Source of the DNA: a virus
DNA length: 64,000 nucleotides
Direction: 5' to 3' (one strand)
IMG/VR virus record: IMGVR_UViG_3300042893_001581
Coordinates: 1 to 64,000 of that record
A program made the position numbers and the translations under genes. Every line of letters begins with the position of its first letter. Position 1 is the first letter of the stretch. The notes under the pieces are model-generated. The model had not been told where the DNA came from, ran no database searches, and saw only the letters and a list, made by a program, of their open reading frames with translations. Positions 16,793 to 41,301 of the stretch are shown piece after piece.

Positions 16793-16832
16793 ATTATAAC
16801 GCCTTTCAAATAAATATTGATTAATAGTAAAT

Positions 16833-18585: not shown

Positions 18586-19608
18586 TTATTTGATTCCAGC
18601 AAGTTTTTGCCATCTACTCATCATATTATCTTGCTCGATAATAGGTTGCTTAGGTGCCATACCAGCTGCTTGTGAAGCAAAACCAATTGATTCTTTAAGT
18701 TGCTTCTTAGATTCGAAAGACTCTTTCAAAGTTTCAAAAGTGTTCTTAACCTCAGTTACAGATGTAGCACGGTCAAGAGCATTAATTACTTTTACTTTTT
18801 GAGATTCAGACAAAGTCTTAGCTTTAAACAACTTGTTCATGTAAAGATACTTAGCATTAAGAAGATTAACCTCTTGTAGGCTATGACGAAGTTCTTCGAT
18901 AGTAGAGTTAGCTTCTTCAAGCTCTTCTTCTACTTTATCTTTCTTTTCGTCTTCCTCTTTGTCATGTTTTTTCTTCTCTTCAAGCTCTGGGTAATTCATA
19001 CCCTCTTCTTCAAGTTCAGCAAGAATTTCATCTAATGAAATTTCAGCTTCAGCTTCAGAATCAGCGTCTGCTTCGTCAGAAGGAATGTCCATGCCCATGT
19101 CTTGTGAGCCAGCCATTACAGATTGAAGAACTTGTTTAAGGTCACCAAGAGTGATGTCGATGATTTTAGTATCGTCACCAACTTCTTCTCCACCTTCAAC
19201 TTTTTCTTCCTCTTCTTCTTCAGCTTCTTCTTCTTCCTCTTCTTCTTCAGCTTCATTTAAATTTTCGTCTTTCATTTTGTCTTCATCAGCTTCTTCCATT
19301 TTATCGTGGTCAGCTCCGTCAACTTTAGAAAGCTCTTCGAGTTCAGCAAGAATTTCTTCTAGCTCAGAATCGTTAATGCTATAGTCTCCTTCCATTCGTG
19401 GTTGATCCATAGCGTCATTCATTTCTTCGATATTCTCTTCTGCTTCAGCTTGATAAGAATCATCTCCCATTTCTTCAGATAGCTTCAAACGAAGCATCTC
19501 TTGAATCTTAGGTTCGAAAGCTTCTTCAAGAGCGGCTTTGGCGTTAGCCATAGCAGATGCTCTTAGGGCTTTAGCATCAAGGATAGCGTCTTGATACAAT
19601 TTACTCAT
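18586..19608 (-). CDS. Prohead scaffolding/core protein (gp22-like)
   Basis: Highly acidic coiled-coil protein directly upstream of MCP; many (L/I)xE sites; ends RWQKLAGIK. Confidence 0.8.
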   Translation of the reverse strand: MSKLYQDAILDAKALRASAMANAKAALEEAFEPKIQEMLRLKLSEEMGDDSYQAEAEENIEEMNDAMDQPRMEGDYSINDSELEEILAELEELSKVDGADHDKMEEADEDKMKDENLNEAEEEEEEEEAEEEEEEKVEGGEEVGDDTKIIDITLGDLKQVLQSVMAGSQDMGMDIPSDEADADSEAEAEISLDEILAELEEEGMNYPELEEKKKHDKEEDEKKDKVEEELEEANSTIEELRHSLQEVNLLNAKYLYMNKLFKAKTLSESQKVKVINALDRATSVTEVKNTFETLKESFESKKQLKESIGFASQAAGMAPKQPIIEQDNMMSRWQKLAGIK

Positions 19609-19749: not shown

Positions 19750-20232
19750 TTATTTACTACCTAAAAATACTAGCACTTCAACGTTTCCGTTATCGAGAGT
19801 TTTATAAAAAGTTATATTAGTCGGTATTGTTTGGCCTGAGACTTTTGATTTTGCTTTTTGAGTTGCTGCAAATTGCGCTGCTGATTGGGTTGCACCTGTT
19901 GCTTTGCCTTGTGCTATTTTTACTCCTTTACCTATCATGCCTTGTAGCATTTCTATAGATACATCAACAGATAATCCACCAGCTGCAGGTTTGTAACCTT
20001 GTTTTTCAATTTGTTTTGCAGCTTTAGAACTTGTAATATCAATATCATCGCTAGCTTGTTGAACTATTTGTTGAGGTTCTTGAGCTTTAGTTTGTTGAGG
20101 ACTTCCAAATAAAGATGCCACTGTCATTGCAGCACCAACACCAAGGTCTTTTAAACCTAATTCGTGTATTTCACTTTCTGATAAAAGTCCTGCTAACTTT
20201 TTTAATCTTAATATTTCTAATGAGTTATCCAT
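19750..20232 (-). CDS. Putative internal head protein with RLKKLAG leader
   Basis: N-terminus MDNSLEILRLKKLAGLLSE; lies between protease and scaffold. Confidence 0.55.
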   Translation of the reverse strand: MDNSLEILRLKKLAGLLSESEIHELGLKDLGVGAAMTVASLFGSPQQTKAQEPQQIVQQASDDIDITSSKAAKQIEKQGYKPAAGGLSVDVSIEMLQGMIGKGVKIAQGKATGATQSAAQFAATQKAKSKVSGQTIPTNITFYKTLDNGNVEVLVFLGSK

Positions 20233-20861
20233 TATTTAATACAGCAAACACCAGATTGAGAACAAATAATGTCTGATATTAACTGATGTATTTTATTATC
20301 TTTATGTTTAACTGTATCGTATTCTAATGATTCTCTAAGTCCACCCATTGGTTTCATGTATGCACCATAGGTTGATGGTGTAGATACAAAGTCCCAACAA
20401 ATAAGATCTAAATCATCTTCAACTTGAACAAGACCTTCACCTATTGGAGTAACAGAACCCATAGCTCTAGATGAAATACCAACAGTGATATTGTTTTTGA
20501 ATAATTCTCTTAATATATTTCCAGAAGGAGTAGGAAGTATTTCAACATCGCCATATAAATCTTTACCTTCCCAGAAAAGTCTTATTATATTATGACTAAC
20601 ATTCTTAAGGTTAATAATAGAAGATTCTGGGTGATCTAGTTCACCTAAAGCTCTATTCTCTGAAATTGGTCCAGCAATGTACTTCTGTACTTGCACAAAT
20701 AAAGTTTGATAAGGATATATTCTTTTATTTGCATTAGGTTTATCAGTAGCCTGAACAAGTCCAGACACTACCATATTACCATTAGCTAAACGACGAACTT
20801 CAGTCAAAGACTGCTGGATTGGTTGAAAAGCACTATATTCTATTAAGAGTTGTTTGTTCAT
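20232..20861 (-). CDS. gp21: Prohead core protease (T4 gp21-like)
   Basis: NANKRIYP, ALGELDHP, NVSH, GISSRAMGSV, WDFVSTPSTYGA. Confidence 0.93.
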   Translation of the reverse strand: MNKQLLIEYSAFQPIQQSLTEVRRLANGNMVVSGLVQATDKPNANKRIYPYQTLFVQVQKYIAGPISENRALGELDHPESSIINLKNVSHNIIRLFWEGKDLYGDVEILPTPSGNILRELFKNNITVGISSRAMGSVTPIGEGLVQVEDDLDLICWDFVSTPSTYGAYMKPMGGLRESLEYDTVKHKDNKIHQLISDIICSQSGVCCIK

Positions 20862-22185: not shown

Positions 22186-22196
22186 GCTAATAAATA

Positions 22197-24137: not shown

Positions 24138-24177
24138 AGTTTTTTTACGAGTCCGCTAGTAATAAATATCTAAATAT

Positions 24178-26088: not shown

Positions 26089-26092
26089 ATTA

Positions 26093-27688: not shown

Positions 27689-28377
27689 TATTTGATTATT
27701 AATAAACCTAAGATCACAGCGCCTAAGACTACTTTTTGGAATCTACCAAATTTAAGTTTGCGATCAGCTTTTTTTACTTCTGTTTTCAAACCATCAACTT
27801 GTATTTTATAGTTGTCAATTTGGCTTGATTTGTCTTTATCTATTTGAATATAGTTAGCTTCTTTGTCTCTTAACTTAACAATAACCTCTTCACGATTCTT
27901 AAGAGACTGATCTAAAGTAACTATAACGCTGTCTTGTGCTACTACTAATTTCTCATTTGTTTCTCCTTCTTGAAGATCAACAACAACCGCTTTACTTACT
28001 TCTAAAGGAAGTTGAGTTGTATCTTCAGATACTAAAATGTATTCGTTAGGATACTTAGCTACAAAAAAACTATCTACTTGAGTAGGAGTATATTTTAAAG
28101 CATTTTTAGCGTCTTTAAGATCACCTTTCAAATCTAAGACTTTTTCATTTAACTTAACCACTTTAACTACCAAGTATTCATTATCTTGTTCTAATATACT
28201 AATAGCTCCTTCTAAATGAATGTTTTCTATTTGTATAGAGTCAATACTATGTTCAAGTGAATCAATCTTTTGTTCAAAAGGTTTTGTATCAAATTTAGGG
28301 GCTTTGTAAATGAATACATACCAAACTGCTAATAAAGCTAAAAGGCATATCACTACAATACTAATTGTCTTCTTCAT
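27688..28377 (-). CDS. Membrane-anchored coiled-coil protein (possibly spanin-like)
   Basis: Hydrophobic N- and C-terminal segments flanking a long coiled coil. Confidence 0.45.
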   Translation of the reverse strand: MKKTISIVVICLLALLAVWYVFIYKAPKFDTKPFEQKIDSLEHSIDSIQIENIHLEGAISILEQDNEYLVVKVVKLNEKVLDLKGDLKDAKNALKYTPTQVDSFFVAKYPNEYILVSEDTTQLPLEVSKAVVVDLQEGETNEKLVVAQDSVIVTLDQSLKNREEVIVKLRDKEANYIQIDKDKSSQIDNYKIQVDGLKTEVKKADRKLKFGRFQKVVLGAVILGLLIIK

Positions 28378-28735
28378 CTGAATCTAATTTAGGGTTTTCT
28401 ATTCTTTTAATTTTTGCTTGTAGTCTTTGTATATCGTATGGAATTTGTCCTACAGCCTCTTTATATGCGGCCATATCTGTTATTTTTAATTCACCATTAG
28501 GACCTCTTTTTATTTTACCATCATCGTCTTTATCTGAATACTTATATATAGCCTTTTTTATTTGGCTTTTAAGATCTTCTAGTTCTTTTTTATCTTTATC
28601 TAGATTCCTAAAGTCTTTTTCAGATTGTTTGAGATCATCTTTTGAAGGTTCTACCTCCATATCTTCCTCTTCTCTGATCTTAGAGATTATGGTAAGATTG
28701 TTTTCAACTAAATACTTTCTTAAGTTAAATGACAT
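28361..28735 (-). CDS. Putative internal head protein (leader MSFNLRKYLVE)
   Basis: Late promoter motif at 28752-28759; leader ends LVE. Confidence 0.55.
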   Translation of the reverse strand: MSFNLRKYLVENNLTIISKIREEEDMEVEPSKDDLKQSEKDFRNLDKDKKELEDLKSQIKKAIYKYSDKDDDGKIKRGPNGELKITDMAAYKEAVGQIPYDIQRLQAKIKRIENPKLDSDEEDN

Positions 28736-28762
28736 GGTTGCACATTTACTTATAAATATTTA

Positions 28763-29008
28763 TCAATCAACAAAATCTTCTTTGGTAAGTACTTTCCTTA
28801 AAGGCCTAGATAATTCTAGCCATCTATCATAATCGTACTTGACTCCAAACAAATAGTATTCGTCTTGCTTATTATGTCCTTTAGAGTAAAGGATAGCAGG
28901 GCCTGTGGCACAGTGTGGTTTTGTAGTCCCTTTTTCGTCTTCGTAGATGTGGATTGTTGTTCCTTCTATAGTGTTTATTGTTCTATAGATTGTATCTTTT
29001 TTTGCCAT
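28763..29008 (-). CDS. Hypothetical protein with its own early-type promoter
   Basis: 81 aa, H..GPA...EYYLFG motif; upstream TTTGTTGTATATTAG. Confidence 0.6.
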   Translation of the reverse strand: MAKKDTIYRTINTIEGTTIHIYEDEKGTTKPHCATGPAILYSKGHNKQDEYYLFGVKYDYDRWLELSRPLRKVLTKEDFVD

Positions 29009-29022
29009 GTTATTAATTTATG

Positions 29023-29057
29023 GCTAATATACAACAAATAATTGAAATAAAAAAATT
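29023..29057 (-). promoter_or_regulatory. Putative early/host-polymerase promoter
   Basis: Minus strand AAATTTTTTTATTTCAATTATTTGTTGTATATTAG is nearly identical to plus strand 42277-42311. Confidence 0.6.
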
Positions 29058-29071
29058 TATTTTAGAATAAA

Positions 29072-30616
29072 TTAAGAAAAATCTACAAGATCCTCCCCTT
29101 CAACATCTACATCTACATTTTCAGGATCTCCTATAAAAAAATTAAGTAAAGATGATAATGAAGATTTTAATTTATTCCATGCACTAGAAAAGAAATTTTT
29201 AATGCTACTAGAATCTATTTCATTAATATCTTCTGGATTATACTGGAGTCCTAAAACTGTAGCATATCCGTACTCTCCGGTTTTTTCTCCTTTACTTTTT
29301 ATAGATCCTGTTTTAAATCTAACATCTACTTTTATTTGTCCTGCTACTTTTTTTGCGTAAGAATCGTTTTTTATTTTAACAAGTTTAGCATTTTCATAAT
29401 TTTTATCTACAGATAAAATATATTCTGCGGTTGCAGGGCTATCTGCTCCAAATTTTTTTTCTCCAGACATTGCTTCAATTACAAATGCTTTTGTAAAAGT
29501 AGGATTATTTTCAAATAAACTTTCTAAAGCAGCCATTGCTTTTTTATTTGCTGCATTTGCTGTATTTAAAGCTTTATCTTCTCCTGTTTTTAGTGATGTT
29601 CTTATATTTCCTTGGGTTCTTCCTCCTTTAGCAAATTTATTTATTTGTTTTAAAATATTTTGAACTTCTTCTGTTTGTATTAACTCTGGGGTTTTTTCTA
29701 ATGCTGCATAAAATGTGGCCTTAGCTTCTTCTTTTACTCCACTCATTAATTGAGACGGTCCTGCTTTTACTGATATTCTCGCACCTCCTATTATTACATC
29801 AGATTTTGATGTCTTATTTTTTGCTTTATAAAAACTCCAAAACTCTGTTAATGGCTCACTAAGTTTACCTGTAGATATAGCATATTCTCCACCGGTTAAA
29901 TTTGTTGCAATAAGAGCTTTTTTTGCTTTATTTATTAAATCTGGGTATTTACTATTTATCTGGTTAACTTCTGAATCACTTACTGCTCCTTTTGGTATTT
30001 TTCTATTATTTATTTTATGCCATGCTATTACTAAAGCCGTTTCAAAAAGAACAGATTTTTTTTGCTCACCTTCTGCTTCCAATACATAATTAGTTAAAAT
30101 ACTCTCTAATATCCTAGACTCTGTCAACTCTTCTCCTCCTGCTTCTGGTGCTGATGTTTCTGCTGGTGGAGTTGGTCCTGCTTCTTCTGAAGGTCCTTCT
30201 GAATCTCTAGTCGCTTGTTCTGCTCCATCAGGTCCTTTAGTCTTTAAAGGATTACCAAACCTAAGAAGCCTTGATATTGCAATCATGCATCTTTCTTTCT
30301 CACCAATAGACATTAAATAGTATTTTCTTCCTTCTACAGTTGCTTCATAAGCTTTACCCATGAACTGTAAGAATAAGAATTGACCATTATGTAGAACAAC
30401 TTTAAATGTTGTTGGCTTAGGAGCAACTACATATATACCAGTTATATATTCTTCAAATGAAGGAGTCATAAGATACTCAAGAGTGTTCTTAAGTCCTGCA
30501 TACTTCTTCAATATGAACTGCATAGGATCATCCTCAAACGTAGAAGTTTCAGGCTCCATCCTATCTAACTCTTGTAAGAGTATAGTCTTTAATATATCTT
30601 GGTTACTCACTGGCAT
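29072..30616 (-). CDS. Two-domain leader-bearing protein; C-terminal domain possibly PD-(D/E)xK-like
   Basis: Leader ...ILKTILLQE; linker ELTESRILESILTNYVLEAE; TSKSDVIIGGARISVK motif. Confidence 0.45.
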   Translation of the reverse strand: MPVSNQDILKTILLQELDRMEPETSTFEDDPMQFILKKYAGLKNTLEYLMTPSFEEYITGIYVVAPKPTTFKVVLHNGQFLFLQFMGKAYEATVEGRKYYLMSIGEKERCMIAISRLLRFGNPLKTKGPDGAEQATRDSEGPSEEAGPTPPAETSAPEAGGEELTESRILESILTNYVLEAEGEQKKSVLFETALVIAWHKINNRKIPKGAVSDSEVNQINSKYPDLINKAKKALIATNLTGGEYAISTGKLSEPLTEFWSFYKAKNKTSKSDVIIGGARISVKAGPSQLMSGVKEEAKATFYAALEKTPELIQTEEVQNILKQINKFAKGGRTQGNIRTSLKTGEDKALNTANAANKKAMAALESLFENNPTFTKAFVIEAMSGEKKFGADSPATAEYILSVDKNYENAKLVKIKNDSYAKKVAGQIKVDVRFKTGSIKSKGEKTGEYGYATVLGLQYNPEDINEIDSSSIKNFFSSAWNKLKSSLSSLLNFFIGDPENVDVDVEGEDLVDFS

Positions 30617-30619
30617 TAT

Positions 30620-31255
30620 TTATTTTGCTTTTTTACGCTTGATAACACTTTCCATCATAGATTTAAGAGCCATGTCTAAATCTTCTGCATCACCTGCAGG
30701 TACTTCTTGTGTACCATCTGGAAGTTCATCCATATCATGCTCACCGTTATGATATTCATGATAATTCTTTGAAGCCTGATTAATAAAGTTTTCTGCATTA
30801 GTAATATGATCTTGTATCCAAGCTGGAATATCTTTTTCATCTTGGCCTAACATATTCATCAATTGACTTGCTGAGCTTATAATAGACTTAAGACTATTTT
30901 GAGCCATTGATACTTCATGATCTTGACCTTCAGATTCCTTCATGTACTTTGATTTTCTCATAAAATCTCTTTGTGCGTCAGCTTTGGATTCAAACCCATC
31001 ATTTGATTTTTGACTTTTTCCTGATTTAGGATTCCATGTCCAATAGTATTTATCACCTTCTTTTTCAATCTTTAAAGTTCCTCCACCACTATCATCATCT
31101 TCTTCTTCGTTTTTAGCACGAAGTGCTGCAAAGTCTGCAGCAGTAATTTTATCTTTAGGTTCGGCAGCTCCTGCTATTCTCTCTTGATTTCCAGGAAGAT
31201 CTTTTTCATTTAACTCTTTCATTAAAAGAGCTTTAAAGAATGAAATGTTAGTCAT
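30620..31255 (-). CDS. Putative internal head protein (start revised to MTNISFFKALLMKE)
   Basis: ATG at 31255 directly follows the upstream stop; modules delimited by LNE/MKE. Confidence 0.6.
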   Translation of the reverse strand: MTNISFFKALLMKELNEKDLPGNQERIAGAAEPKDKITAADFAALRAKNEEEDDDSGGGTLKIEKEGDKYYWTWNPKSGKSQKSNDGFESKADAQRDFMRKSKYMKESEGQDHEVSMAQNSLKSIISSASQLMNMLGQDEKDIPAWIQDHITNAENFINQASKNYHEYHNGEHDMDELPDGTQEVPAGDAEDLDMALKSMMESVIKRKKAK

Positions 31256-31256
31256 T

Positions 31257-31544
31257 TTATTTTTTCTTTTTAGATTTACTTGCTTTTTTCCATAAACTTT
31301 TATCTGCTTTTCTTGCTCCACCTTTACCTGTTACAAATGAATTTACTCTGCCCATTGCCCATTGGTGTTGACCAACTCCAGGACGGTGTCCTGTTTTCCA
31401 AGCTGCCAAACCTTTAGCATAAACACTTTTAAGTATTGATTTAGATATACCAGTAGACTTTGCTTTGTTTGCTAGTGCTTTTTCTATTTCAGCGTCATAC
31501 TCAAGAATGAGTAATTGTTTTAATATATCTAATTTATTGATCAT
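31257..31544 (-). CDS. Basic putative internal head protein (start revised to MINKLDILKQLLILE)
   Basis: Leader followed by a basic domain GLAAWKTGHRPG...WAMGRVNSF. Confidence 0.6.
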   Translation of the reverse strand: MINKLDILKQLLILEYDAEIEKALANKAKSTGISKSILKSVYAKGLAAWKTGHRPGVGQHQWAMGRVNSFVTGKGGARKADKSLWKKASKSKKKK

Positions 31545-31554
31545 TTCTTTTTTT

Positions 31555-31929
31555 TTATCTAATTTCCTTAACACTTTTTTTAGCGTCTTCTAATGAATTA
31601 AATGCTTGTGAAGGATTTCCTGGATTTGCAGTTTGTGTAAAAGTATACACGTAAAATTTACCATCTTTATTTGTAATGGCATAATTTTTTGCAGATCCAA
31701 TTGCTCTAGACACAATATCAACTAAAGGAGACGAACTATCAATATTAAATTTTTTAATAAATTCTTCTTTATTATTAATGTCTGTCCATTTTCCTTCAAA
31801 TGAGGATTTAACTGGTGCTTGATCTCCTCCGGATAAAAATTGGTTTATATCAAATTCATCTAATTGAGATTCCTTAATTATACCAGCTAATTGCTGCATT
31901 CTTTTTACTTCATTTAATTGTTTTTTCAT
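31555..31929 (-). CDS. Putative internal head protein with RMQQLAG leader
   Basis: MKKQLNEVKRMQQLAGIIKESQLDE. Confidence 0.6.
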   Translation of the reverse strand: MKKQLNEVKRMQQLAGIIKESQLDEFDINQFLSGGDQAPVKSSFEGKWTDINNKEEFIKKFNIDSSSPLVDIVSRAIGSAKNYAITNKDGKFYVYTFTQTANPGNPSQAFNSLEDAKKSVKEIR

Positions 31930-32201
31930 TTCTTTTTCTTTTTATCTAGTTTATTTTTAACTATCTCTCTAGTCCTATCCATTTTCCTTGCATAAGCAGG
32001 ATCATCTTTACGGTTAAAATTAGCTTGTTGGTTTAATGAGCCAGTTATTTTGCTCATGTTACCTTTTCTTGTTCTAATCAACCAATTAGCTAACTTTTCT
32101 GCTGGCAACTCTTTAAACTTACCTTTTGCATCTGGTGCATTAGAATGATGAAACTTAAGTCTCTCTTCAACTAACTGTTGTAATAGTTCTTGTAGTTTCA
32201 T
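31926..32201 (-). CDS. Basic putative internal head protein
   Basis: Leader MKLQELLQQLVEE. Confidence 0.6.
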   Translation of the reverse strand: MKLQELLQQLVEERLKFHHSNAPDAKGKFKELPAEKLANWLIRTRKGNMSKITGSLNQQANFNRKDDPAYARKMDRTREIVKNKLDKKKKK

Positions 32202-32734
32202 TACTTTTCTTTTTTACCAAATCTTTTTTCGTAAGCAGAAGTTGCTGCACTCTTCTTAGTCTTGTACTTCTTAGTCTTACCCTTATCTGAATAATCTGCG
32301 TCCCACTTACCATATGCTGAAGGATCATCGGACTTTAACTTTTTTACTCTATCAATTTCTTTTTTCATTGCTGCTGCATCTTTAGTAAGATAAGCAGGAT
32401 TAACCTTATTTTTCTTTTTTGCTTCACTTACTCTAACACAGTTAGGAACCATATTACCTTTTTTTCCTTTTTTCATTGGATTTTTTGGATCTTTTCTATA
32501 TCCTTTCCAACAAGCTTCTTCTAAAGGATTTAAATCTAATTCTTTTTCTATATCGGTAATGTCATCATATCCTAAATATTCTAAATCTTTTTCTAAAGTA
32601 TAAGGGGTTTTTGATACGGCTCTAGATATTTGATCTCTAATTTCAGCATTTCCATTATTAAAAGCCTGTAAAATATTCTGATAGTGAATATCTGTTTTAG
32701 CCATTTCTAATAATATATCTTTAAGCTTTATCAT
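32201..32734 (-). CDS. Modular putative internal head protein
   Basis: Leader MIKLKDILLE; LEEACWKGY...VPNCV module; late promoter motif at 32741-32748. Confidence 0.6.
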   Translation of the reverse strand: MIKLKDILLEMAKTDIHYQNILQAFNNGNAEIRDQISRAVSKTPYTLEKDLEYLGYDDITDIEKELDLNPLEEACWKGYRKDPKNPMKKGKKGNMVPNCVRVSEAKKKNKVNPAYLTKDAAAMKKEIDRVKKLKSDDPSAYGKWDADYSDKGKTKKYKTKKSAATSAYEKRFGKKEK

Positions 32735-32796
32735 ATGAATATAAATATCTGCCTATCAATTAAAGTTGGGAGGTTAATATATCTATCATATTTATA

Positions 32797-33333
32797 CTAC
32801 TTCCAAGTAATTCCATTCCAATATTCAAACCCCTGTAATTTGTTTTTATAGTTGAAAATATCAAAATAATCAGCTATATATAAATACTCATAGTCATTTA
32901 TAAGTTTTTTTAGTAAGTAATAAAATGAAAGAGTTCCATAAGACTTTTTACTTTTTGTTTCATTCATGACAGAGAATAATACTTGATCTTCTATATAGAT
33001 TATCCTACCCCAAAAAAGATCGTCAAAAAAAAAGTCTTCAAATTTTCCGTGATTATAAAGTTGTAGGTCTGGTGGGGTTTCTATTTGTTTGTTTTCTGTA
33101 TGTCCTGATATTTTTATTTTAGATAGTTGATTTTTTCTTTTACTAGAAATTTCTTGTATTTTTAGTCTTGAAGATTGTGTTTGATACCAGTGTTCCTGAT
33201 TATCTTTATAATAAACAATCCATCCATTTTCAAACATGGATTTAGCAGATTCATTTTCTCTTTCAGCTTCTAAATAAATTAGAGGATATTTACCATTATA
33301 AATACTTAAAGAATGATCAAATATTAGTTTCAT
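32797..33333 (-). CDS. Possible aminoacyl-tRNA-protein transferase (ATE/Bpt-like, compact)
   Basis: FENGW...WYQTQSSRL N-terminal part; SYGTLSF...YEYLYI...YKNKLQGFEYWNG.W C-terminal part resembles ATE_C motifs. Confidence 0.4.
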   Translation of the reverse strand: MKLIFDHSLSIYNGKYPLIYLEAERENESAKSMFENGWIVYYKDNQEHWYQTQSSRLKIQEISSKRKNQLSKIKISGHTENKQIETPPDLQLYNHGKFEDFFFDDLFWGRIIYIEDQVLFSVMNETKSKKSYGTLSFYYLLKKLINDYEYLYIADYFDIFNYKNKLQGFEYWNGITWK

Positions 33334-34018
33334 TATCTAATTCATTATATATTTTAGATCTTTCTTTATTTGATTCACCAGATTCTAAGTCAGTATGATC
33401 ATAATTAAAAACATCAGTATCAGGTGTAACCCACCTACTGTTTCTTTCTGCAGTCCAAGAAGTAGTATTATATTTTCTATTTATAACAATATCTTGTTTA
33501 ACTGTAAATGACGGATCATGAATAATTAATCTATTATTAGGTTGTATTGCAAAATTTCCATTATCCATTTGAATAAAATGTCCGCATTTATGTTGAGAAG
33601 GAAATTCACTTAATCCAAAATCTGTATCGCTCATATCATCAGAACTTCCCCAATCTAAGGTAAATAAATATTTTCCTGAATATTGAATTCTTCTTCTTGA
33701 TGTGAACTTACAAGTCTTATTTTTTAATATAGGAAAACAAGTTGCACCTACATGATATGTAAATGAATCCCACAAAACAAGTTCATCTAACTCTTGTTGA
33801 GGAGCATCTTCTTTCCAACAAAAGGCATGAATTGGCATTCTCCACCAGAGTCCACCATCTTCCATCATAAAATGAAATAATGGTGCTTGAGCAGGTATTG
33901 ACGACATGCCAAATATATAGCATGGAAATTTTTTATCAAAAGAATCTTCTTGATTTCTTAGAAAGTTTCCTCTAATAAAAGATTCAACAATTGGGATTGG
34001 GGTATTTAGATATGACAT
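33317..34018 (-). CDS. Hypothetical protein
   Basis: 233-aa globular ORF (WWRMPIHAF, YLFTLDW, HKCGH, GNFAIQPNNR). Confidence 0.65.
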   Translation of the reverse strand: MSYLNTPIPIVESFIRGNFLRNQEDSFDKKFPCYIFGMSSIPAQAPLFHFMMEDGGLWWRMPIHAFCWKEDAPQQELDELVLWDSFTYHVGATCFPILKNKTCKFTSRRRIQYSGKYLFTLDWGSSDDMSDTDFGLSEFPSQHKCGHFIQMDNGNFAIQPNNRLIIHDPSFTVKQDIVINRKYNTTSWTAERNSRWVTPDTDVFNYDHTDLESGESNKERSKIYNELDNETNI

Positions 34019-34043
34019 TTTATAACCTTTTTATAAATTTATA

Positions 34044-34361
34044 TTATTTTTCTCTTATTAATAGTTCACCTAATACTTCTAAACGTCCAACTTCACGTTG
34101 AAATTCAATTTGAGTCATATTTAAGGATATCTTTTTATATGTCTGCTCAAATTCTTTTTTAGCTGCTTCTTTATCAAACTTACCTTCAGTAGCTTTTTTA
34201 TAATATGGAGCTTTAACTTTAAAATGATGCCAAGTTAATAAAGATAATCCACCTTTTTCTTCAGCGGTAGCTGCTATTTTAGCTGCGCCTTTAGCACGTG
34301 TTTGAGCAAAGGTTTCAAAGCTTTCTTTAGCTTCAGTTAACAGTTGAATAAGTTTTATCAT
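34044..34361 (-). CDS. Putative internal head protein
   Basis: Leader MIKLIQLLTE. Confidence 0.6.
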   Translation of the reverse strand: MIKLIQLLTEAKESFETFAQTRAKGAAKIAATAEEKGGLSLLTWHHFKVKAPYYKKATEGKFDKEAAKKEFEQTYKKISLNMTQIEFQREVGRLEVLGELLIREK

Positions 34362-34873
34362 TTGTTTTTATTTTTAACAGGAGCATAACCAGAACCATAC
34401 AGGGCTGCTTTGCCTGATTGTGGATCTGCTGTTTCTTTTACTTTATTTAAACGTTTAGTTTTTTCTTTTGATGCTTCTTTACGAGATTCAATATAATCTA
34501 ATCCATTTTTTAATCTAGCTTTTACTTCAGAGTCTTTAGCTTTACCGTAAGCTGCTCTGACTCTTTGGTGTATTAAATTTATAATCTGTGACTGTCTAGC
34601 ATGTGATTTAGATTTAAATTCACTTTTAGATAGTGTATCTTTTATATCTTTAACTGTTTTAAATTTTACACTAACAGTATCTTTAGGATCTTCATCTGTG
34701 TATAATCTGCGGTCTGATCCCTTTGGCTTTTTACCACTACCTTTTTTAGGATCCGCTTCAGTTATATCAGGATCATTAGTCCAGGTATCAGAAGCTTTGT
34801 ATCTTACTTTTTTAACCATATCGGATCTATATGGCGGATACATTTCTAATAATATATCTAATAGTTTAATCAT
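34358..34873 (-). CDS. Basic putative internal head protein
   Basis: Leader MIKLLDILLE; internal ITE and VKE sites. Confidence 0.6.
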   Translation of the reverse strand: MIKLLDILLEMYPPYRSDMVKKVRYKASDTWTNDPDITEADPKKGSGKKPKGSDRRLYTDEDPKDTVSVKFKTVKDIKDTLSKSEFKSKSHARQSQIINLIHQRVRAAYGKAKDSEVKARLKNGLDYIESRKEASKEKTKRLNKVKETADPQSGKAALYGSGYAPVKNKNK

Positions 34874-34874
34874 A

Positions 34875-35747
34875 TTACCACTTTCTACATGACCAATATC
34901 TAGCTTTCCATCTTGGTCCTGGATTAGTGTCGCAATGATGTCTTGCTCTAAAACTTTTTCTCCTTTCAGGATTATTCTTTTTTATCTTTACTCCTTTCTG
35001 TCCAAAGTTAACTTTAACAACATTTCCTTTGGCATTCTTTACGTACACCTTAAACTTTTTAATATCGCCGGCCATTGGTTTTCCTAGTTGTACTTTTCTA
35101 CCTTTGTACTCTGCTTCTTGTAAAGAGTTAGCATGATCTTTTATATATTCAGCTAAACATTGAGGACAAAATTCTCCCTCATTTAATTCTTCAAGCCCTG
35201 CTTTAATTAGTTTATCGTAGTATTTAGGATCTTCTTTAATATGATCTAAAGCTATTTTTAAAGCTATTTTAGGATCATCAGTATGCTCCATCTCAACTTC
35301 AATACCTTTTTTTATTTGGGAAAGTTTATCTTTATCTATTTTAGATTCTTTTATACCTGCTATGTGTCTACCTTGATACTTATCCTGAAGATAGTTAACC
35401 ATTTTTGCATTCATATTAAAATCAAGCTCTAATTTTTTATCATTAGGTTCTTTATCTATAGCTTTAGCTATTGTTTGCATAAAACCATTTTCTACATTAT
35501 TATCTACAATAGCAGCCATTTTATCATCAATATCAAGACGATCTAACCATGTTTGTGATTTTTGACCGTCTGGTTTTGTAACGGCTGCTTTTATAAACTG
35601 GAATGTTGTTTTTGCTGCGCCATATCCAGGAACAAAATCTAATATTGCATCTACAGCAACTCCAGCTATTTTATCAGTCTTTTGTTTTTTTGCAATAGAT
35701 TGTATAGCTTGTTTTAAATCTCCATATGTCTCAAGATTATTTTCCAC
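34875..35747 (-). CDS. Multi-module putative internal head polyprotein
   Basis: Modules separated by IKE/LEE/LNE/LQE, including GIEVEMEHT...IALDHIKEDPKYY and a basic C-terminal VNFG...SFRARH.C...ARYWSCRKW module. Confidence 0.6.
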   Translation of the reverse strand: MENNLETYGDLKQAIQSIAKKQKTDKIAGVAVDAILDFVPGYGAAKTTFQFIKAAVTKPDGQKSQTWLDRLDIDDKMAAIVDNNVENGFMQTIAKAIDKEPNDKKLELDFNMNAKMVNYLQDKYQGRHIAGIKESKIDKDKLSQIKKGIEVEMEHTDDPKIALKIALDHIKEDPKYYDKLIKAGLEELNEGEFCPQCLAEYIKDHANSLQEAEYKGRKVQLGKPMAGDIKKFKVYVKNAKGNVVKVNFGQKGVKIKKNNPERRKSFRARHHCDTNPGPRWKARYWSCRKW

Positions 35748-36028
35748 TATGGTAAATTTTGAGTCCTAGTATCATATACTTTTAATACCTGTTGTAATGT
35801 TGGAGATATAGATCCTCTTCCTAGGTCATCTAGAATAGCCTTAATTATAGTTGCAAAAGATTGAATTTCTTTAGAATCAGCCCCATTTAATTTAGGTATT
35901 GTAATAGAAGAAAGGTCTCTAAAATATTTTTGTAGTTCAGATTTTGTATCTACTATATTTTTTTCTTTAGGAAGGTCTTCCTCTTTTAAAAGATTAGTTA
36001 CATGCTTTTTAAATTCTGGCGTATTCAT
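35747..36028 (-). CDS. Hypothetical protein with ...NLLKEE leader
   Basis: 93-aa ORF coupled to neighbours. Confidence 0.55.
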   Translation of the reverse strand: MNTPEFKKHVTNLLKEEDLPKEKNIVDTKSELQKYFRDLSSITIPKLNGADSKEIQSFATIIKAILDDLGRGSISPTLQQVLKVYDTRTQNLP

Positions 36029-36390
36029 TATTTTAGGAATTTAAGTTTATACTTAGTAGATTCTAGAAGATTAACTACATTGTCAATCTCATTCTGGATA
36101 TATGAATCTTGTGGAACTTTTGTTCTAATCATTTCTACAAACTTACAAAGACCTTCGAAGTAAAGAATCGCATTATCATCTTCTTTTATCTGATTTGCCA
36201 TTGCATATCCACGAAGAATGCCGTATTTTCCTTGATATGACTCAACTAAACCGTCGATCAAATCTACAATCTCTTCGTAATACTTTTGCAAAGCTTTGTG
36301 AGCGGCAAAAGAGTTTGTCTGTAAATGGTAGATGTGAGCCTGATTACGGCTTTGCATCAATGTTCCTATAAATAAAGCGTATGGTTCCAT
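36028..36390 (-). CDS. Ferritin/Dps-like four-helix protein (start revised to MEPYALF)
   Basis: QAHIYHLQT.SFAAHKAL..YYE.I.DLIDGLVESYQG...YKLKFL. Confidence 0.7.
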   Translation of the reverse strand: MEPYALFIGTLMQSRNQAHIYHLQTNSFAAHKALQKYYEEIVDLIDGLVESYQGKYGILRGYAMANQIKEDDNAILYFEGLCKFVEMIRTKVPQDSYIQNEIDNVVNLLESTKYKLKFLK

Positions 36391-37244
36391 TAGTCTTGTT
36401 TTGGTTGCCATCTAAGCTCACCAGATTTAACATCTGCATCAAATATTTCTTTAGGCCATTGCCATAATTTTCCTTTAAATTTATCAGATTCTAAGTAAAC
36501 CTTATCGCCTTCTATTTTTTGAATTGTTAATACTTGATTATCTTTTTTTACAAATTTATCTCCAACTTTTAAATTATCACCTATATTTAAGCTAGATTCT
36601 TTAATATCTTTTTTTTTATCTTCTTCTTTCTCAACATTTTTCTTGCTCTTTTCAATCTTTTCCATCTTACTCATAAGATCGTCGATTTGAGATGCAAGTT
36701 TAGCAATATGTTCTTTATGTTGAGAAGCATTTTTAGGATCTTCTTTTGCCATATCAACGTGCTCTTTACGCTTCTTTTCAAGATGGTCGATAGTCTTTTT
36801 TAACTTATCTCCAACTTTACCTTTCTTTTCTTCAAGTTGAAAAGATTCGTCCATATATTTTTTGTATGCTTCTGCTGCTATTTCTTGAGCTTGAGAAGCA
36901 TCAGCAGTAACACTTATAACATCTTCCATATTAACATTTAGAGGAGCAAGTCCTTCTAAAGGATTCAATTCTTTAATTAATCCAGCTGCGTCAAGATTAT
37001 CTACAGGTCTAAGAACTACATACATCTTAGTAGGATCATAGTCTTCTTTCTTAACCTTTTTAGGAAGGCCCTTATGTTTAGTTGCAGCGAAGTCTTTTAC
37101 ATCGCCTTTTTTCATTGATTTAGCCATTTCTTTTGCTTTTCCTGATGCTTGTGATGGTTTCATATCTCCTTTTTGAAGGGCACGAACTATGCCCATTAAT
37201 TTTTGTTGTTGTTTAGATGCAGCTTTTTCTGATATATTATGCAT
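36390..37244 (-). CDS. Multi-module putative internal head protein
   Basis: MHNISE, then KAASKQQQKLMG...DFAATKHKGLP (DUF3008-like) module, then LEE/IKE-delimited modules; late promoter motif at 37270-37277. Confidence 0.6.
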   Translation of the reverse strand: MHNISEKAASKQQQKLMGIVRALQKGDMKPSQASGKAKEMAKSMKKGDVKDFAATKHKGLPKKVKKEDYDPTKMYVVLRPVDNLDAAGLIKELNPLEGLAPLNVNMEDVISVTADASQAQEIAAEAYKKYMDESFQLEEKKGKVGDKLKKTIDHLEKKRKEHVDMAKEDPKNASQHKEHIAKLASQIDDLMSKMEKIEKSKKNVEKEEDKKKDIKESSLNIGDNLKVGDKFVKKDNQVLTIQKIEGDKVYLESDKFKGKLWQWPKEIFDADVKSGELRWQPKQD

Positions 37245-37266
37245 TATAATATTCTTTTATAATTTA

Positions 37267-37845
37267 CTAATAAATATCTGTTTTCCTAAACTCCTGTATC
37301 TTTTCTTTGAGCTGTTTATATATATGAGTCTTATCTCCGCCTTGCCAACTTTCAATATCTCCTTGTTCAGTAACAAAAGTATCTTTTTCCTCAAGCCATG
37401 AATCTAAAGCCTGTTCAAACTCTTCAAGGCTAGCATTCTTATTCATATTAAGAATATTCTTCTCATATTGCTCATACTTACCTTCTAGCTTAAGTTTAGC
37501 TTCCATATCAATGACACAGTTCAAACATACTTTGTGTACTGAATACATCTTCTTGTTTAGTTCATTAGCCTTCATAGGCTTCTTACAACTAGGACAAGTA
37601 AGTGGTAAAGATACTAGATGTTTGAACTTATCTAGCTTGGTAATAGACTGTTTGATACCGTTTTTAATGGTCCATTTTTTTCCACCTTCTTCCCAAGTAT
37701 CTCCTTCTTTATGTTCTTCTATTGTAGCTTCCCAACCTCCAAGTACCTGAGTTCTATCACCAGTATTTCCGGTGATAATGTTTCTCATCCTTTGAACTTC
37801 ACTTTTCTTAAACTCTTTTTTTAACGTAGACTCTTTTGGTATCAT
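37267..37845 (-). CDS. Hypothetical protein with CxxC...CxxC zinc finger
   Basis: CPSC...CLNC. Confidence 0.65.
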   Translation of the reverse strand: MIPKESTLKKEFKKSEVQRMRNIITGNTGDRTQVLGGWEATIEEHKEGDTWEEGGKKWTIKNGIKQSITKLDKFKHLVSLPLTCPSCKKPMKANELNKKMYSVHKVCLNCVIDMEAKLKLEGKYEQYEKNILNMNKNASLEEFEQALDSWLEEKDTFVTEQGDIESWQGGDKTHIYKQLKEKIQEFRKTDIY

Positions 37846-37860
37846 AACAGTATTTTTATT

Positions 37861-39120
37861 TTATAAGTTAGAAATGTCTACAATCCAAATATTAGGATCT
37901 TCTCCATTATTAACTAATCCAGAAAGTCTTGTATTACCAGCTAGAAGATCATAATCAGAATTAGAAAATTTGACTGCTATTGGCATTTCTATTTGACCTT
38001 TTTTAAACGCAGATTGGAATCTTTGTTTTTTTTCTTTTTCTAGACTATTAAAATTTAAGTCTACATTTCCAAGGACATCTTTTATTTTAGAGTATTTTGT
38101 TATATATCCTTTTTTAGATATCTTCTCCCAATTATCTTTACCTATTTTTTTAAGTTCTGGATATCGAATTGCTTCTTCCCATTCTACATTAAAATTAGGT
38201 TTAGAATATTTAACCTCATTTATTCTAAATTTACTTAATATATCTTTTGTTTTATTAATATCTTTATGCATTACTGCAATACCACCTAGTGTTTTCCATG
38301 GAGCTAGATTTGTCCAATAGTCATCTATCAATATAGATTTTTTTGGGTCAGTTATCATCTTTAAATGCTTATTTCCGGACTCGGCGAATATAACTTCTTT
38401 TGGTTGTGGACTTAAATTATCTTTAATCCATTCTAATTTACCTTCTTCAGCATATTCAAATTGACCAGGACTAGTTAAGATTATAGGATTATATTTACCT
38501 ATTATAGACCATAGTTCTTGGCCTCCAGGCATCCATTGCATTTTACTCCAGTATGTAATACCTACTTCGTCTACTGCTTTAGTTAGGTACTCATTTGCTT
38601 TTTCTGGTTTATATTGTTTTCTGTATTCTGAGGGGGACATGTTATAAAAATATTCAAACCTTGCATCAAAGTCGCATAGAACTCCATCCATATCACAATA
38701 GATTTGAATACCACTATTACTTTCTACTTCATATATTTGTTTAAGAGTAGGAAGAAAAGACTCATAAATAAGATCATTAGTCTTACCATAATCTCTCATC
38801 ATTATACCTGCCAAAGCATTAGCTTGATTTTCTATATTAGAACCAGTTTCTCCAGCATTATTATATAATTTACCAAGCTCATTTTGTCTATGGTGAACTA
38901 ATTCATGGCATAAGGTTCTAAGTATATCTGCTAGGTTTCTATTACCTATATAAACGTCTAAGTGTCTTTTATTTGGATCATATTGTCCAAAGCTTCTTTT
39001 TTCAGTAGCCCATTCACGATCATTTATAAAACTAGTTGTAGGAAGCTTATCTATATCAAGTTTGCTTTTTACAAACTGTATAAAATCCTCTATTATATAT
39101 TGTCTTTGTTCTAGTGTCAT
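37861..39120 (-). CDS. Tri-domain protein: HExxH metallopeptidase-like, HAD 5'(3')-nucleotidase-like and ParB/Srx-like
   Basis: RTLCHELVH; YCDMDGVLCDF...ILTSP...ILIDD; PIAVK...YDLLAGNTRL. Confidence 0.7.
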   Translation of the reverse strand: MTLEQRQYIIEDFIQFVKSKLDIDKLPTTSFINDREWATEKRSFGQYDPNKRHLDVYIGNRNLADILRTLCHELVHHRQNELGKLYNNAGETGSNIENQANALAGIMMRDYGKTNDLIYESFLPTLKQIYEVESNSGIQIYCDMDGVLCDFDARFEYFYNMSPSEYRKQYKPEKANEYLTKAVDEVGITYWSKMQWMPGGQELWSIIGKYNPIILTSPGQFEYAEEGKLEWIKDNLSPQPKEVIFAESGNKHLKMITDPKKSILIDDYWTNLAPWKTLGGIAVMHKDINKTKDILSKFRINEVKYSKPNFNVEWEEAIRYPELKKIGKDNWEKISKKGYITKYSKIKDVLGNVDLNFNSLEKEKKQRFQSAFKKGQIEMPIAVKFSNSDYDLLAGNTRLSGLVNNGEDPNIWIVDISNL

Positions 39121-39707
39121 TTCATTATTTTCAATAGTCTTCCAAAGACATCTTTAGCTACTCCCTTATTATATGCTGAGTCTGGGATGAATTTAACAAA
39201 CTCTTCAAAATTGCCGGCTTTAATTGTATCTCTCATTTGAGTTGCAGATATTCTACCAAATTGATCTGGTATAGTTTCTTTTCTAACTCTATTAGGAAAT
39301 CTTTTTTGTATAGAATCAAAGTATCCAATATCTTCAACTTCTTCGGCCCCGCCTGCAACATATACTGGATCAACATCAGGATTCTCTGCCATGAACGCAA
39401 AGATGTCTTTTATTGGTGTAGACTCTTTAGATATTGATACATCTATTTTAGGATTTGGTTCTGCTTTAAGATACTCTTGCCAAATATAAAGAGAATCTTC
39501 AGGAGTTATACCATACTTAGTAACATTAGATATAATAACATATACTTTATTAATATAATTTAAAGATGCTAAATACTTTGTAGCTTCGAAATGTCCTTTG
39601 TGAGGAGGCTTAAATTTACCAGGATAAAAACAAGGTCCTACATCTGGTGATGCTTCTCTTAGTATATCTTCTGCTATTTGTCTTCCTAGTTGTTCGAAAT
39701 TAATCAT
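39117..39707 (-). CDS. HxGH nucleotidyltransferase (cytidylyltransferase-like/NMNAT superfamily)
   Basis: FYPGKFKPPHKGH and ISATQMR motifs; leader ...EDILRE. Confidence 0.8.
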   Translation of the reverse strand: MINFEQLGRQIAEDILREASPDVGPCFYPGKFKPPHKGHFEATKYLASLNYINKVYVIISNVTKYGITPEDSLYIWQEYLKAEPNPKIDVSISKESTPIKDIFAFMAENPDVDPVYVAGGAEEVEDIGYFDSIQKRFPNRVRKETIPDQFGRISATQMRDTIKAGNFEEFVKFIPDSAYNKGVAKDVFGRLLKIMK

Positions 39708-40492
39708 GGTGTAATAAATGATTTTGCTTTAGACACAACACTTTCAGTACTATCGTCTTTTAGAGACTCAACTTGTTTTTCTATATCTTCAAACTGTCCA
39801 GCTAAGATATCTATTTGTTTATCAACTAGCTCTTTAGATTTTGCTATTTCTTCAGGAGATTTTTGTTTAGTAGGATCTTTTTTAAATGTAGACTTAAATT
39901 GACCAGAAGATAATAGTTCAGAAAAGAATTCTTTTAGCTTTCCAGAATTATACGCCTTCATAAATGCGCCAACCATCTTCTGTTCTGCAGGACTAACCTC
40001 TGATTGTACTAATAAAAAGTTATCTCCAAACATACTTTTATATGTAGAGATATTTTTATATACATTATTCCAACTTGATAATACTCCAACAGTTGGTACC
40101 TTTCTTTCTCTCTTAAAGTTCCTCAAAAAACTTACAACCGGATTGGTATAAACCATGATCATCATTATGTCATAGCCTGAGGATTCTATATTCTTTACTC
40201 TGTCTACATTTGTTCCTGTAGTATCATAAAGAAAATTCTTACCACTTTTTATAGTATTAGGTAGATCAACCTTCTCTATATAACTAGACGCCTTACCTAA
40301 ACTGTTATACATAGGACTATCTTTATCTTCTACATACTTGTCAGCATTAAGTTCTTGCCAGCCTGATTTTTCAAGGTCCGGTCTAAGTTGCCTAACTATA
40401 TTAGATTTGCCTGCTCCGGCTCCGCCGGCCATGACAATAGCCTTATTACCATTTTCAGGTTGTTCTTTCAATAAATCTAGTAGCTTAATCAT
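39704..40492 (-). CDS. P-loop kinase (zeta toxin/AAA_33-like) with MIKLLDLLKE leader
   Basis: MAGGAGAGKS, NAD, YDTTG, RNFKRERKVP. Confidence 0.75.
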   Translation of the reverse strand: MIKLLDLLKEQPENGNKAIVMAGGAGAGKSNIVRQLRPDLEKSGWQELNADKYVEDKDSPMYNSLGKASSYIEKVDLPNTIKSGKNFLYDTTGTNVDRVKNIESSGYDIMMIMVYTNPVVSFLRNFKRERKVPTVGVLSSWNNVYKNISTYKSMFGDNFLLVQSEVSPAEQKMVGAFMKAYNSGKLKEFFSELLSSGQFKSTFKKDPTKQKSPEEIAKSKELVDKQIDILAGQFEDIEKQVESLKDDSTESVVSKAKSFITP

Positions 40493-40506
40493 ACTACCAA
40501 TAAATA

Positions 40507-41301
40507 TTAATCTGTAAGTTTAACAGTATTAGGAAGAGTAAGTAATTCAATTTCAGTCTCCGGGTGCATAATCTTGTAAGTTTCATAGGTATGTAAGAAC
40601 ATATTGAAGTACTCGTCTACTGTCTTCTTTCCTTCAATTATTTCCCATCCTGCACCTTGCATTTTTTTGCCTGCCTTATCTGGCCCTCTCTTTGTAGATT
40701 TAAGCCATACGATACCGTTACGATCCACTTTTTGGAGGTATTTCTCTTCATAAGCTTTAGTGTAGGCTGACATTTGTAAGTGGTGGCTTTCATGAACTGC
40801 GTTTGAGGTTTTAATATCTAGAAGCCATTTTTCTCCATTGATATCTACCAATAGATCTAGGGTTCCAGAATACTTATGTGTATCACTAAACATGAATTCT
40901 TCTGACAATAAAAGGGTTGGCTTATATGTTGTCCAGAAGTCTGTGAATCCTAAAATCATCTTCCATACATGAGTATGATAGTTAACCTTGCCATCAGGTT
41001 CAATCCATCTAATCTCTTCATTTTTTAAGAATTTCTCTACTGCGTTGTGTACTTGAGTTCCTTCATCACCGGCGCGACGCATAACAATATCAGCATTATG
41101 CCCCATGTCTTTAATCCACGTTTCAAAAAAAGCACCTTTAGGAAAGTAGCCTAGGATAGTAGTAACAGAGGGATAGAAAACACCAGGAGATCTTTGATAA
41201 TACCTTGAATCATGTAAAGTAATTTGTCTAAGCTCAGGATCTGTCTCAACGATTCTTTTTAAGAACTTATCTCTATAGACATTCTTGTTTTGTTCAATCA
41301 T
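40507..41301 (-). CDS. PD-(D/E)xK exonuclease (Cas4/RecB-like)
   Basis: YPSVTTIL, GTQVH, YSGTLDL, LLDIKTS, QMSAY. Confidence 0.85.
   Translation of the reverse strand: MIEQNKNVYRDKFLKRIVETDPELRQITLHDSRYYQRSPGVFYPSVTTILGYFPKGAFFETWIKDMGHNADIVMRRAGDEGTQVHNAVEKFLKNEEIRWIEPDGKVNYHTHVWKMILGFTDFWTTYKPTLLLSEEFMFSDTHKYSGTLDLLVDINGEKWLLDIKTSNAVHESHHLQMSAYTKAYEEKYLQKVDRNGIVWLKSTKRGPDKAGKKMQGAGWEIIEGKKTVDEYFNMFLHTYETYKIMHPETEIELLTLPNTVKLTD

Follow-up and report, generated by a model that had tools for sequence, protein, structure and literature searches.

Candidate capsid-targeting tags on an array of unrelated proteins in an uncultured T4-type freshwater phage

The array and its leader peptides

The stretch of DNA analysed here (the window) comprises 64,000 nucleotides, positions 1 to 64,000 of the IMG/VR virus record IMGVR_UViG_3300042893_001581, and is part of a T4-superfamily myophage of the far-T4 type from an uncultured freshwater source. 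One block on its minus strand carries, in this order, genes for a primase and a PD-(D/E)XK exonuclease, an array of 20 genes spanning 12 kb (28361-40492), and genes for a membrane protein, the large terminase and the portal, followed by three unknown head-module genes, a Peptidase_S77 prohead protease, a small protein, an acidic scaffold-like protein, the coat protein, PhoH and fibres. The array, bounded by the exonuclease gene and the terminase gene, is the subject of this study: about twelve of its proteins begin with short leader peptides, for which the best-supported reading, to which we assign a probability of about 0.65, is that they are capsid-targeting and cleavage tags of the T4 type. 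The cultured relative Flavobacterium phage vB_FspM_immuto (hereafter immuto) has an identical gene order, with a 13-kb counterpart block between exonuclease and terminase. The coat protein of the window is 55% identical to that of immuto and more remote from the counterparts in Rhodothermus phage RM378 and T4-like phages.

A preliminary description of the window had proposed that a common N-terminal leader precedes unrelated proteins throughout the array. All 11 leaders that it quoted are present at the gene starts on the minus strand, and the two DNA strings that it gave as near-identical leaders are exact. The bodies are unrelated as claimed, no pair of array proteins matching at BLASTP E<0.1 after removal of the first 22 residues. 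The leaders form three classes, not one: class A of the MIKL type, class B of the FNLRKYLVE type and class C of the RMQQLAGIIKE type. The strict class A decapeptide, M-I-K-L-x-(D/Q)-(I/L)-L-x-E, opens four window genes (starts at 40492, 34873, 34361 and 32734), and in seven or eight further array genes a longer N-terminus runs up to a hydrophobic-hydrophobic-x-Glu motif within the first 22 residues. This loose motif, ending at or before residue 22, was found in 11 of the 20 array genes, where about 6% would be expected from its density within proteins (binomial p ~4e-9), and in 10 of the 45 other genes of the window; the tail and baseplate genes of the window do not have it. At least four array proteins, and probably some twelve in all, have at their start a short amphipathic propeptide of the type of the T4 capsid-targeting sequence (CTS).

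The survey was extended to a sample made up of the window and 80 related IMG/VR loci, in which 58 open reading frames (ORFs) begin with the strict form, compared with a mean of 0.25 and a maximum of 3 in 200 shuffles, an enrichment of more than 200-fold. In the window and its relatives the strict tag stands on at least 16 unrelated body families. Class B, which in the window reads MSFNLRKYLVE with a second site behind it, is also the leader of four immuto proteins that are unrelated to one another, and leaders of class C occur on eight body families in relatives and on two immuto genes. Genome-wide counts of the motif were made on the complete immuto genome and on T4 (NC_000866, 271 ORFs). In immuto, the region at 100-130 kb, which covers the head module and the block upstream of the terminase gene, has the motif in 15 of its 32 genes, versus 17 of 187 in the rest of the genome, a background level (p ~1e-6). 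An equal frequency in early or replication genes had been named in the preliminary description as the pattern that would speak against packaging; the replication and nucleotide-metabolism genes of immuto are at background, and since this holds for everything outside 100-130 kb, the motif is not common in replication genes.

Among 48 distinct class A leaders, positions 2, 4, 7, 8 and 10 are invariant or nearly so (L4 in 47 leaders; I or L at position 7, L or I at position 8 and E10 in all 48), and positions 5 and 9 are free. Synonymous codon variation is seen at every conserved position, Ile being encoded by ATA, ATT and ATC in 22, 16 and 10 cases, respectively, and Leu by both of its codon families, while exchanges between Lys and Arg run via CGN codons. 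Because the codons vary synonymously while the residues hold, it is the peptide on which selection acts. The DNA upstream of the leader genes also differs from gene to gene. A reading of the leaders as DNA-level repeats was ruled out, as the codons differ, and so was a reading as signal peptides, on account of the tag's length of 10 residues and the acidic residues in it.

Correspondence with T4 and with the head genes

The T4 N-termini read from NC_000866 are MKTYQEFIAE for IPII and IPIII, MAKINELLRE for gp24, MELITELFDE for Alt and MNEPQLLIE for gp21. The layout common to T4 and class A is M-x-x-hydrophobic-x-acidic/polar-hydrophobic-hydrophobic-x-E, with hydrophobic residues at positions 4, 7 and 8 and Glu at position 10. 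In T4, gp21 cleaves after L/I-x-E, the first 10 residues of IPIII are sufficient for encapsidation, and in IPIII residues 4 and 7 control targeting and residues 8 and 10 control processing (PMC9026906). The profile of natural variation in class A agrees with this map of determinants, positions 4, 7, 8 and 10 being conserved. A control pattern fitted to both phages retrieves 4 of the 271 T4 ORFs (IPII, IPIII, gp24 and gp61.1) and, of the 69 window ORFs, the four of class A and no others, and Alt fits it from its annotated start. Since the pattern is selective in T4 and in the window, the strict tag is a specific predictor. What the preliminary description had called a T4-like address tag therefore stands as a portable, peptide-level signal ending in a gp21-family cleavage motif, on the strength of the T4 comparison, the codons, the S77 protease and the 16 body families, but its highly specific form is limited to four genes of the window. 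The sole T4 match of the control pattern outside known head proteins is gp61.1, an uncharacterised protein of 54 residues (NC_000866 18966-19130, minus strand), which begins with a perfect CTS-like decapeptide, MKTFKEFIKE.

The T4 targeting sequences (those of IPI, IPII and IPIII, together with the propeptides of gp24 and Alt) resemble the window leaders in being N-terminal tags of about 10 residues on unrelated bodies, and in being accompanied by a gp21-family protease. They differ in dialect, which is of the MKTY/MKTF type in T4 and of the MIKL type in the window, and the window adds two more leader classes. T4 has three small, dispersed genes, whereas the window, which is known from sequence alone, has about 12 tagged genes in one block adjoining the terminase gene, and its proposed cargo, unlike the T4 internal proteins, includes enzymes and jointed multi-module proteins. 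The class A proteins are Lys-rich with an isoelectric point (pI) of 8.7-9.8 and in this respect resemble the T4 internal proteins, which are likewise Lys-rich and basic and whose lysines contact DNA (PMC3012670). According to the statement in PMC3012670 that refers to its reference 23, the internal-protein loci of T-even phages are polymorphic, with diverse bodies of which only the CTS is conserved. The window shares with those loci variable bodies behind a conserved tag and a fast turnover among close relatives, but its lineage is far more distant, the locus is larger, and bodies are swapped not only as whole genes but also in part, at internal joints of the protease type.

The enzyme presumed to remove the leaders is encoded in the same block (Table 1). 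In an alignment with T4 gp21 the protease keeps the GELxHP and SSRxxGS motifs, which hold the catalytic His and Ser, and an N-terminal LLIE is common to both proteins; T4 gp21 has an LIE-9 site (PMC9026906). The preliminary description had noted that protease and coat protein begin like the leaders. For the protease this is borne out; in the coat protein SLLTE is indeed present, but it is not the homologous maturation site. In a three-sequence alignment it is the predicted site V-V-E/S at residue 62 (the slash marks the cut) that lies opposite the T4 gp23 cut L-T-E/A. Maturation of the coat protein at SLLTE was accordingly ruled out, and because the homologous site is at residue 62, SLLTE would be an extra site within the presumed delta piece. 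The acidic scaffold-like protein ends in RWQKLAGIK, and its immuto counterpart ends in the same way. This C-terminal motif recurs, then followed by hydrophobic-x-E, at the N-termini of two unrelated proteins (19750-20232 and 31555-31929). The class C leader may be a second address that copies the coat-binding end of the scaffold.

Composition, joints and turnover of the array

Table 1. Array genes, head genes and promoter-like motif copies, with window positions
Feature	Position	Strand	Remarks
Zeta_toxin-family P-loop kinase, class A leader MIKLLDLLKE	39704..40492	minus	PF06414 E=9.9e-10; leader codons 40463-40492
NMNAT/cytidylyltransferase-like nucleotidyltransferase, 18-residue leader ending ILRE	39117..39707	minus	weak phrog_395, phrog_3041; GKFKPPHKGH motif
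Three-module protein: HExxH domain, 5'-nucleotidase, optional C-terminal domain	37861..39120	minus	phrog_2643 E=3.9e-26, residues 138-304
192-aa protein with Cys-x2-Cys pair, no leader	37267..37845	minus	no family match (Pfam, PHROG)
DUF3008 protein, no N-terminal leader, variable C-terminal part	36390..37244	minus	PF11450 E=4e-8; joint DIKE (residue 216)
DUF5856/Dps-like protein, no leader	36028..36411	minus	PF19174 E=9e-23; phrog_858 E=2e-26
93-aa protein, 16-17-residue leader ending LLKEE	35747..36028	minus	only some relatives have it
Composite protein: variable N half, then DUF5661 and DUF5754, no N-terminal leader	34875..35747	minus	Pfam; joint GIKE (residue 134)
171-aa Lys-rich protein, pI 9.8, class A leader MIKLLDILLE	34358..34873	minus	leader at 34844-34873; in 3/9 close relatives only
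105-aa basic protein, class A leader MIKLIQLLTE	34044..34361	minus	leader at 34332-34361; immuto orthologue begins MRLLELLRE
phrog_3704 family protein, weak site PIVE at residue 12	33317..34018	minus	phrog_3704 E=3.5e-51
178-aa protein, no leader	32797..33333	minus	only some relatives have it
Class A leader MIKLKDILLE, hypervariable module, L-E-E/A joint, Lys-rich C-terminal domain	32201..32734	minus	leader at 32705-32734; alignment, 32 homologues
91-aa protein, pI 10.3, 13-residue leader ending LVEE	31926..32201	minus
124-aa protein, class C leader (ends RMQQLAGIIKE)	31555..31929	minus	window only, among close relatives compared
DUF5824 protein, pI 10.4, 15-residue leader ending LILE	31257..31544	minus	PF19141 E=1e-17; start 31544 agrees with relatives
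Acidic 211-aa protein, 14-residue leader ending LMKE	30620..31255	minus	start 31255 agrees with relatives
514-aa two-module protein, leader ending LLQE (residue 16), C-terminal nuclease-fold domain	29072..30616	minus	structure model
81-aa protein, no leader	28763..29008	minus
Acidic 124-aa protein, class B leader MSFNLRKYLVE, then second site	28361..28735	minus
Prohead protease, gp21 family	20232..20861	minus	PF03420 Peptidase_S77 E=3.3e-22; presumed leader-removing enzyme
Head-module protein, class C-like leader (ends KKLAGLLSE)	19750..20232	minus
Acidic scaffold-like protein, pI 4.2	18586..19608	minus	position and composition; presumed docking partner; C-terminus RWQKLAGIK resembles class C
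Major capsid protein, gp23 type	16885..18561	minus	V-V-E/S after residue 62 (predicted); additional SLLTE at residue 11
ATATTTAT motif, array copies	40500-40507, 37270-37277, 32741-32748, 28752-28759	minus
ATATTTAT motif, further copies	24162-24169, 22190-22197, 16810-16817	minus
ATATTTAT motif, further copies	44920, 48714, 56999, 60809, 63242	plus

The kinase scores 38.6 bits with PF06414 (curated cut-off 22.3) and has the Walker A motif GAGAGKS; its leader is kept in about 100 metagenomic orthologues, in which position 9 alone is free. A search for kinase homologues returned close orthologues only (64-96% identity) and is therefore uninformative on leaderless cellular relatives. Orthologues of the NMNAT-like protein from a marine lineage begin MKKFSQFVE. 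In the close relative L001 (1807-7446) two large ORFs, of 1050 and 824 residues, take the place of the exonuclease, kinase and NMNAT genes, and the second of them starts directly at the NMNAT motif, without a leader. The nucleotidase protein is headed by an HExxH domain (HELVHH; window 38730-39120) of no recognised family, and in immuto (L081 17087-19810) a similar domain is part of a 907-residue fusion with an NMNAT-like domain, the same modules thus appearing in other fusions. Pfam gave no match for a putative late sigma factor, the tail genes or the HExxH domain.

Several array proteins are composed of modules. The module boundaries, placed at the points at which parts are separated, lost or swapped in relatives, are five in number (in the genes at 37861-39120, 36390-37244, 34875-35747, 29072-30616 and 32201-32734), and all lie within three residues of an L/I/V-x-E site; the rough chance value for this coincidence is 2e-5, for boundaries that were picked post hoc. 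The three-module protein has a weak N-terminal site (YIIE) and joints at LIYE/QIYE (about residues 120-131) and RINE (about residue 302), and most of its relatives end near residue 300. Relatives of the DUF3008 protein align as separate pieces, 8-200 and 217-283, and the halves of the composite protein match separately in relatives, where they are separate genes. In the family of the class A protein at 32201-32734 a hypervariable module of about 55 residues is followed by an invariant L-E-E/A joint (residue 73) and a conserved Lys-rich C-terminal domain, and in many homologues the first site is immediately followed by another, VISE; the model of this protein (mean predicted local distance difference test score, pLDDT, 50.8) was too poor for a fold search, and an Atlas search returned unnamed viral clusters only.

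The most elaborate case is the 514-residue protein, which is laid out as a leader helix, an N-domain (residues 30-120), a disordered acidic linker, a joint YVLE/A (residue 180; bases 30077-30121) and a nuclease-fold domain (residues 183-465; bases 29222-30070). In its model (ma11c036d8cd3) pLDDT exceeds 90 in both domains, and its C-terminal domain is predicted to fold like HinP1I and MspI, which are monomeric restriction endonucleases. VIA gave HinP1I at Z 10.1 (root-mean-square deviation 4.5, 194 aligned) and MspI at Z 9.7, the next unrelated row being at 4.9, and Foldseek gave a HinP1I/MspI-like match with a probability of 0.97-0.99 and E ~3e-3. The domain has no Pfam or PHROG family and produced only leads in Atlas (0.83-0.86). 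Residues D273, S282, K284 and E297 are invariant; in the model D273 and S282-x-K284 are on adjacent strands and may correspond to the catalytic D ... (D/E/Q/N)-x-K motif, with Ser at its middle position. Stand-alone homologues from further aquatic T4-like lineages start in the T4 dialect, for instance with MKTFSEYITE (form MKTF-x-E-Y-I-T-E) or MKTFKEYIVE; strict T4-like tags such as MKTFSEYITE are present in 13 of 31 such homologues and tag-like N-termini in about 20, and these N-terminal tags align with the internal joint YVLE/A of the fused window protein. One marine contig has tags of the T4 dialect at the start of its NMNAT-like, nucleotidase, ligase-like and nuclease-fold genes. The same module occurs in Pelagibacter phage HTVC008M with its genes partly fused, the DUF5824 domain there forming the C-terminus of a 596-residue fusion. 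In immuto all G is replaced by fdPreQ1 (PMC10516641), a replacement that could shield phage DNA from a HinP1I/MspI-like nuclease.

The array differs from its surroundings in its rate of change. Close relatives agree at 87-100% identity in the flanking primase, exonuclease, terminase and portal and at 48-93% in the array proteins, and the array shows gene gain and loss, domain replacement and C-terminal swaps. The exchangeability proposed in the preliminary description is supported by the comparison of close relatives, in which both genes and modules were gained, lost or swapped. Four array genes (starts 40492, 37244, 32734 and 28735) are preceded at a distance of 7-33 nt by a promoter-like motif, ATATTTAT, which is found upstream of head, tail, baseplate and fibre genes as well, 13-15 of its 19 coding-strand copies being in such positions. 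It is a candidate late promoter, from which very short or no 5' leaders would be produced, and its distribution suggests that the array is co-expressed with the virion genes. The array evolves fast, and its genes are probably late ones.

Interpretation and alternatives

Since the tags resemble the head-loading signal of T4, the tagged proteins are probably packed in the virion. From the analysis as a whole we infer docking, cleavage, packaging and injection of a large payload, which might proceed as follows. While the head is being assembled, the propeptide would dock its protein to the scaffolding core, and the gp21-family serine protease (20232-20861) would then cut after the Glu of hydrophobic-x-Glu, both at the N-terminal tag and at the similar joints between modules. 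The freed proteins would stay beside the DNA in the head and reach the next host together with it. The cargo would include the P-loop kinase, the NMNAT-like nucleotidyltransferase, the 5'-nucleotidase, the protein with the restriction-endonuclease fold and several small Lys-rich basic proteins.

Other explanations have to be considered. The leaders could be docking and cleavage propeptides of assembly or core components that are degraded and lost like T4 gp22, gp67 and gp68, with no payload to be injected. T4 core proteins do have N-termini of the same kind (MEGLIE in gp67, MLKEQLIAE in gp22), and several array proteins have a high charge and predicted disorder, but folded enzyme domains (kinase, nucleotidyltransferase, nucleotidase and nuclease fold) are improbable as scaffolds and the turnover of the block fits host-interaction genes better than assembly parts, so that we regard this explanation as unlikely. 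Little probability also attaches to the leader being a recognition tag for a partner other than the capsid, be it a modifying enzyme, a chaperone or the HExxH-domain protein that the array itself encodes at 37861-39120, given that the tag agrees position by position with the mapped capsid-targeting determinants of T4, that the control pattern is specific for head proteins in T4, and that protease, coat and scaffold-type proteins have related N-termini.

An explanation of about the same low standing is that the proteins stay in the cytoplasm, for nucleotide or nicotinamide adenine dinucleotide (NAD) salvage or as small DNA-binding proteins, that the N-terminal helix is generic to AT-rich late genes and that its similarity to T4 arose by convergence. 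The loose motif is common, and the NMNAT-like gene is found without a leader in some relatives; against this stand the more than 200-fold enrichment of the strict tag on 16 unrelated bodies and its absence from tail and baseplate genes and from immuto replication genes. Least probable of all, and by some distance, is conservation at the nucleic-acid level, either as a start context for nearly leaderless mRNAs or as a recombination linker for cassette swaps. Such a role would fit the short distance (7-33 nt) between the promoter-like motif and the ATG and the swapping of cassettes among relatives, but not the free synonymous codons at fixed residues, the replacement of Lys by Arg via unrelated codons, or the differing upstream sequences. 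The reading as T4-type capsid-targeting and cleavage tags remains the one that we prefer.

A number of observations weigh against it all the same. Eight of the 20 array genes have no leader or a weak site only, and the NMNAT-like gene lacks its leader in two relatives (L095 and L001). The loose motif is unspecific, being present in 41 of the 271 T4 ORFs (15%), and for this reason each leader outside class A is weak when taken alone and the case for these leaders is a statistical one. Identity among orthologues is 0.88 for leaders and 0.79 for bodies, a modest excess, and the residue after the leader Glu is not confined to small residues. Kinase, NMNAT and nucleotidase would make a plausible nucleotide/NAD salvage module. 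The promoter reading of ATATTTAT derives from the position of the motif alone, of which there are 25 copies in total versus 15 expected. Domains found in array bodies, such as DUF5754, occur also in podophages and archaeal viruses, groups that are not known to have a gp21-type protease. In the literature we found no virion proteomics for immuto or another relative, no paper on Mel-JY01, and no N-terminal sequencing or cleavage assay for the window phage or its relatives.

Two further systems invite comparison. In phage P1 the Dar anti-restriction proteins are packaged in the head, delivered with the DNA and act early; they are loaded through a hierarchy of Dar proteins, and no shared decapeptide or gp21-type cut is known to take part. 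The proposed cargo of the window would resemble them in being packaged in the head and delivered with the DNA and would differ in its loading, by a shared decapeptide and a gp21-type cut instead of a hierarchy. In the giant phages phiKZ, 201phi2-1 and SPN3US, ejection and inner-body proteins are cleaved after S/A-x-E by a diverged gp21 homologue (PMC9026906, PMC5694885). These phages are like the window in having many head proteins with propeptides cut after Glu (predicted in the window) and redundant tandem sites, which may be compared with those in the family of the class A gene starting at 32734. They differ in having no short uniform N-terminal address and another cleavage motif, and their sites were established by mass spectrometry, whereas those of the window were read from its sequence.

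That T4-like phages load varied proteins via a CTS is already in print (PMC3012670, PMC9026906). New here are the tag dialect, two further leader classes, the enzyme-rich block beside the head genes and the jointed cargo; we found no description of the MIKL-type tag in the literature. One may go further and propose, tentatively and with the odds against it, that this aquatic T4-type lineage preloads its capsid with a changeable enzyme kit by means of three interchangeable address peptides, one of them copying the C-terminus of the scaffold, that multi-module cargo is cut at tag-like joints by the head protease, and that genome-wide DNA modification, of which immuto is an example, could let a nuclease travel beside the phage DNA. 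Should the tags function as they do in T4, loading of proteins into the capsid would be a general plug-in system of environmental T4-type phages, not a curiosity of three small T4 proteins, and enzymes would be delivered before any phage gene is expressed, with consequences for the way in which phages confront host defences within seconds of infection. Virion cargo could then also be predicted from metagenomes by a rule based on sequence, and phage heads could be loaded with foreign proteins by means of new short tags.

Some minor observations may be added. The leaderless DUF5856/Dps-like array protein (36028-36411) bears the same family name as T4 rI.-1. The DUF5661 segment of the composite protein (34875-35747) also matches a DUF2213-annotated protein of Vibrio phage VPs20, DUF2213 being a family of the head-protease/scaffold type. 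In an immuto record (L082), positions 24977-26183 hold a second small cluster, remote from the head genes; of its three adjacent genes one has a class A leader, one a class C leader and one starts with MEEEILLE. A class B gene of immuto, at 1803, adjoins the DNA polymerase gene.

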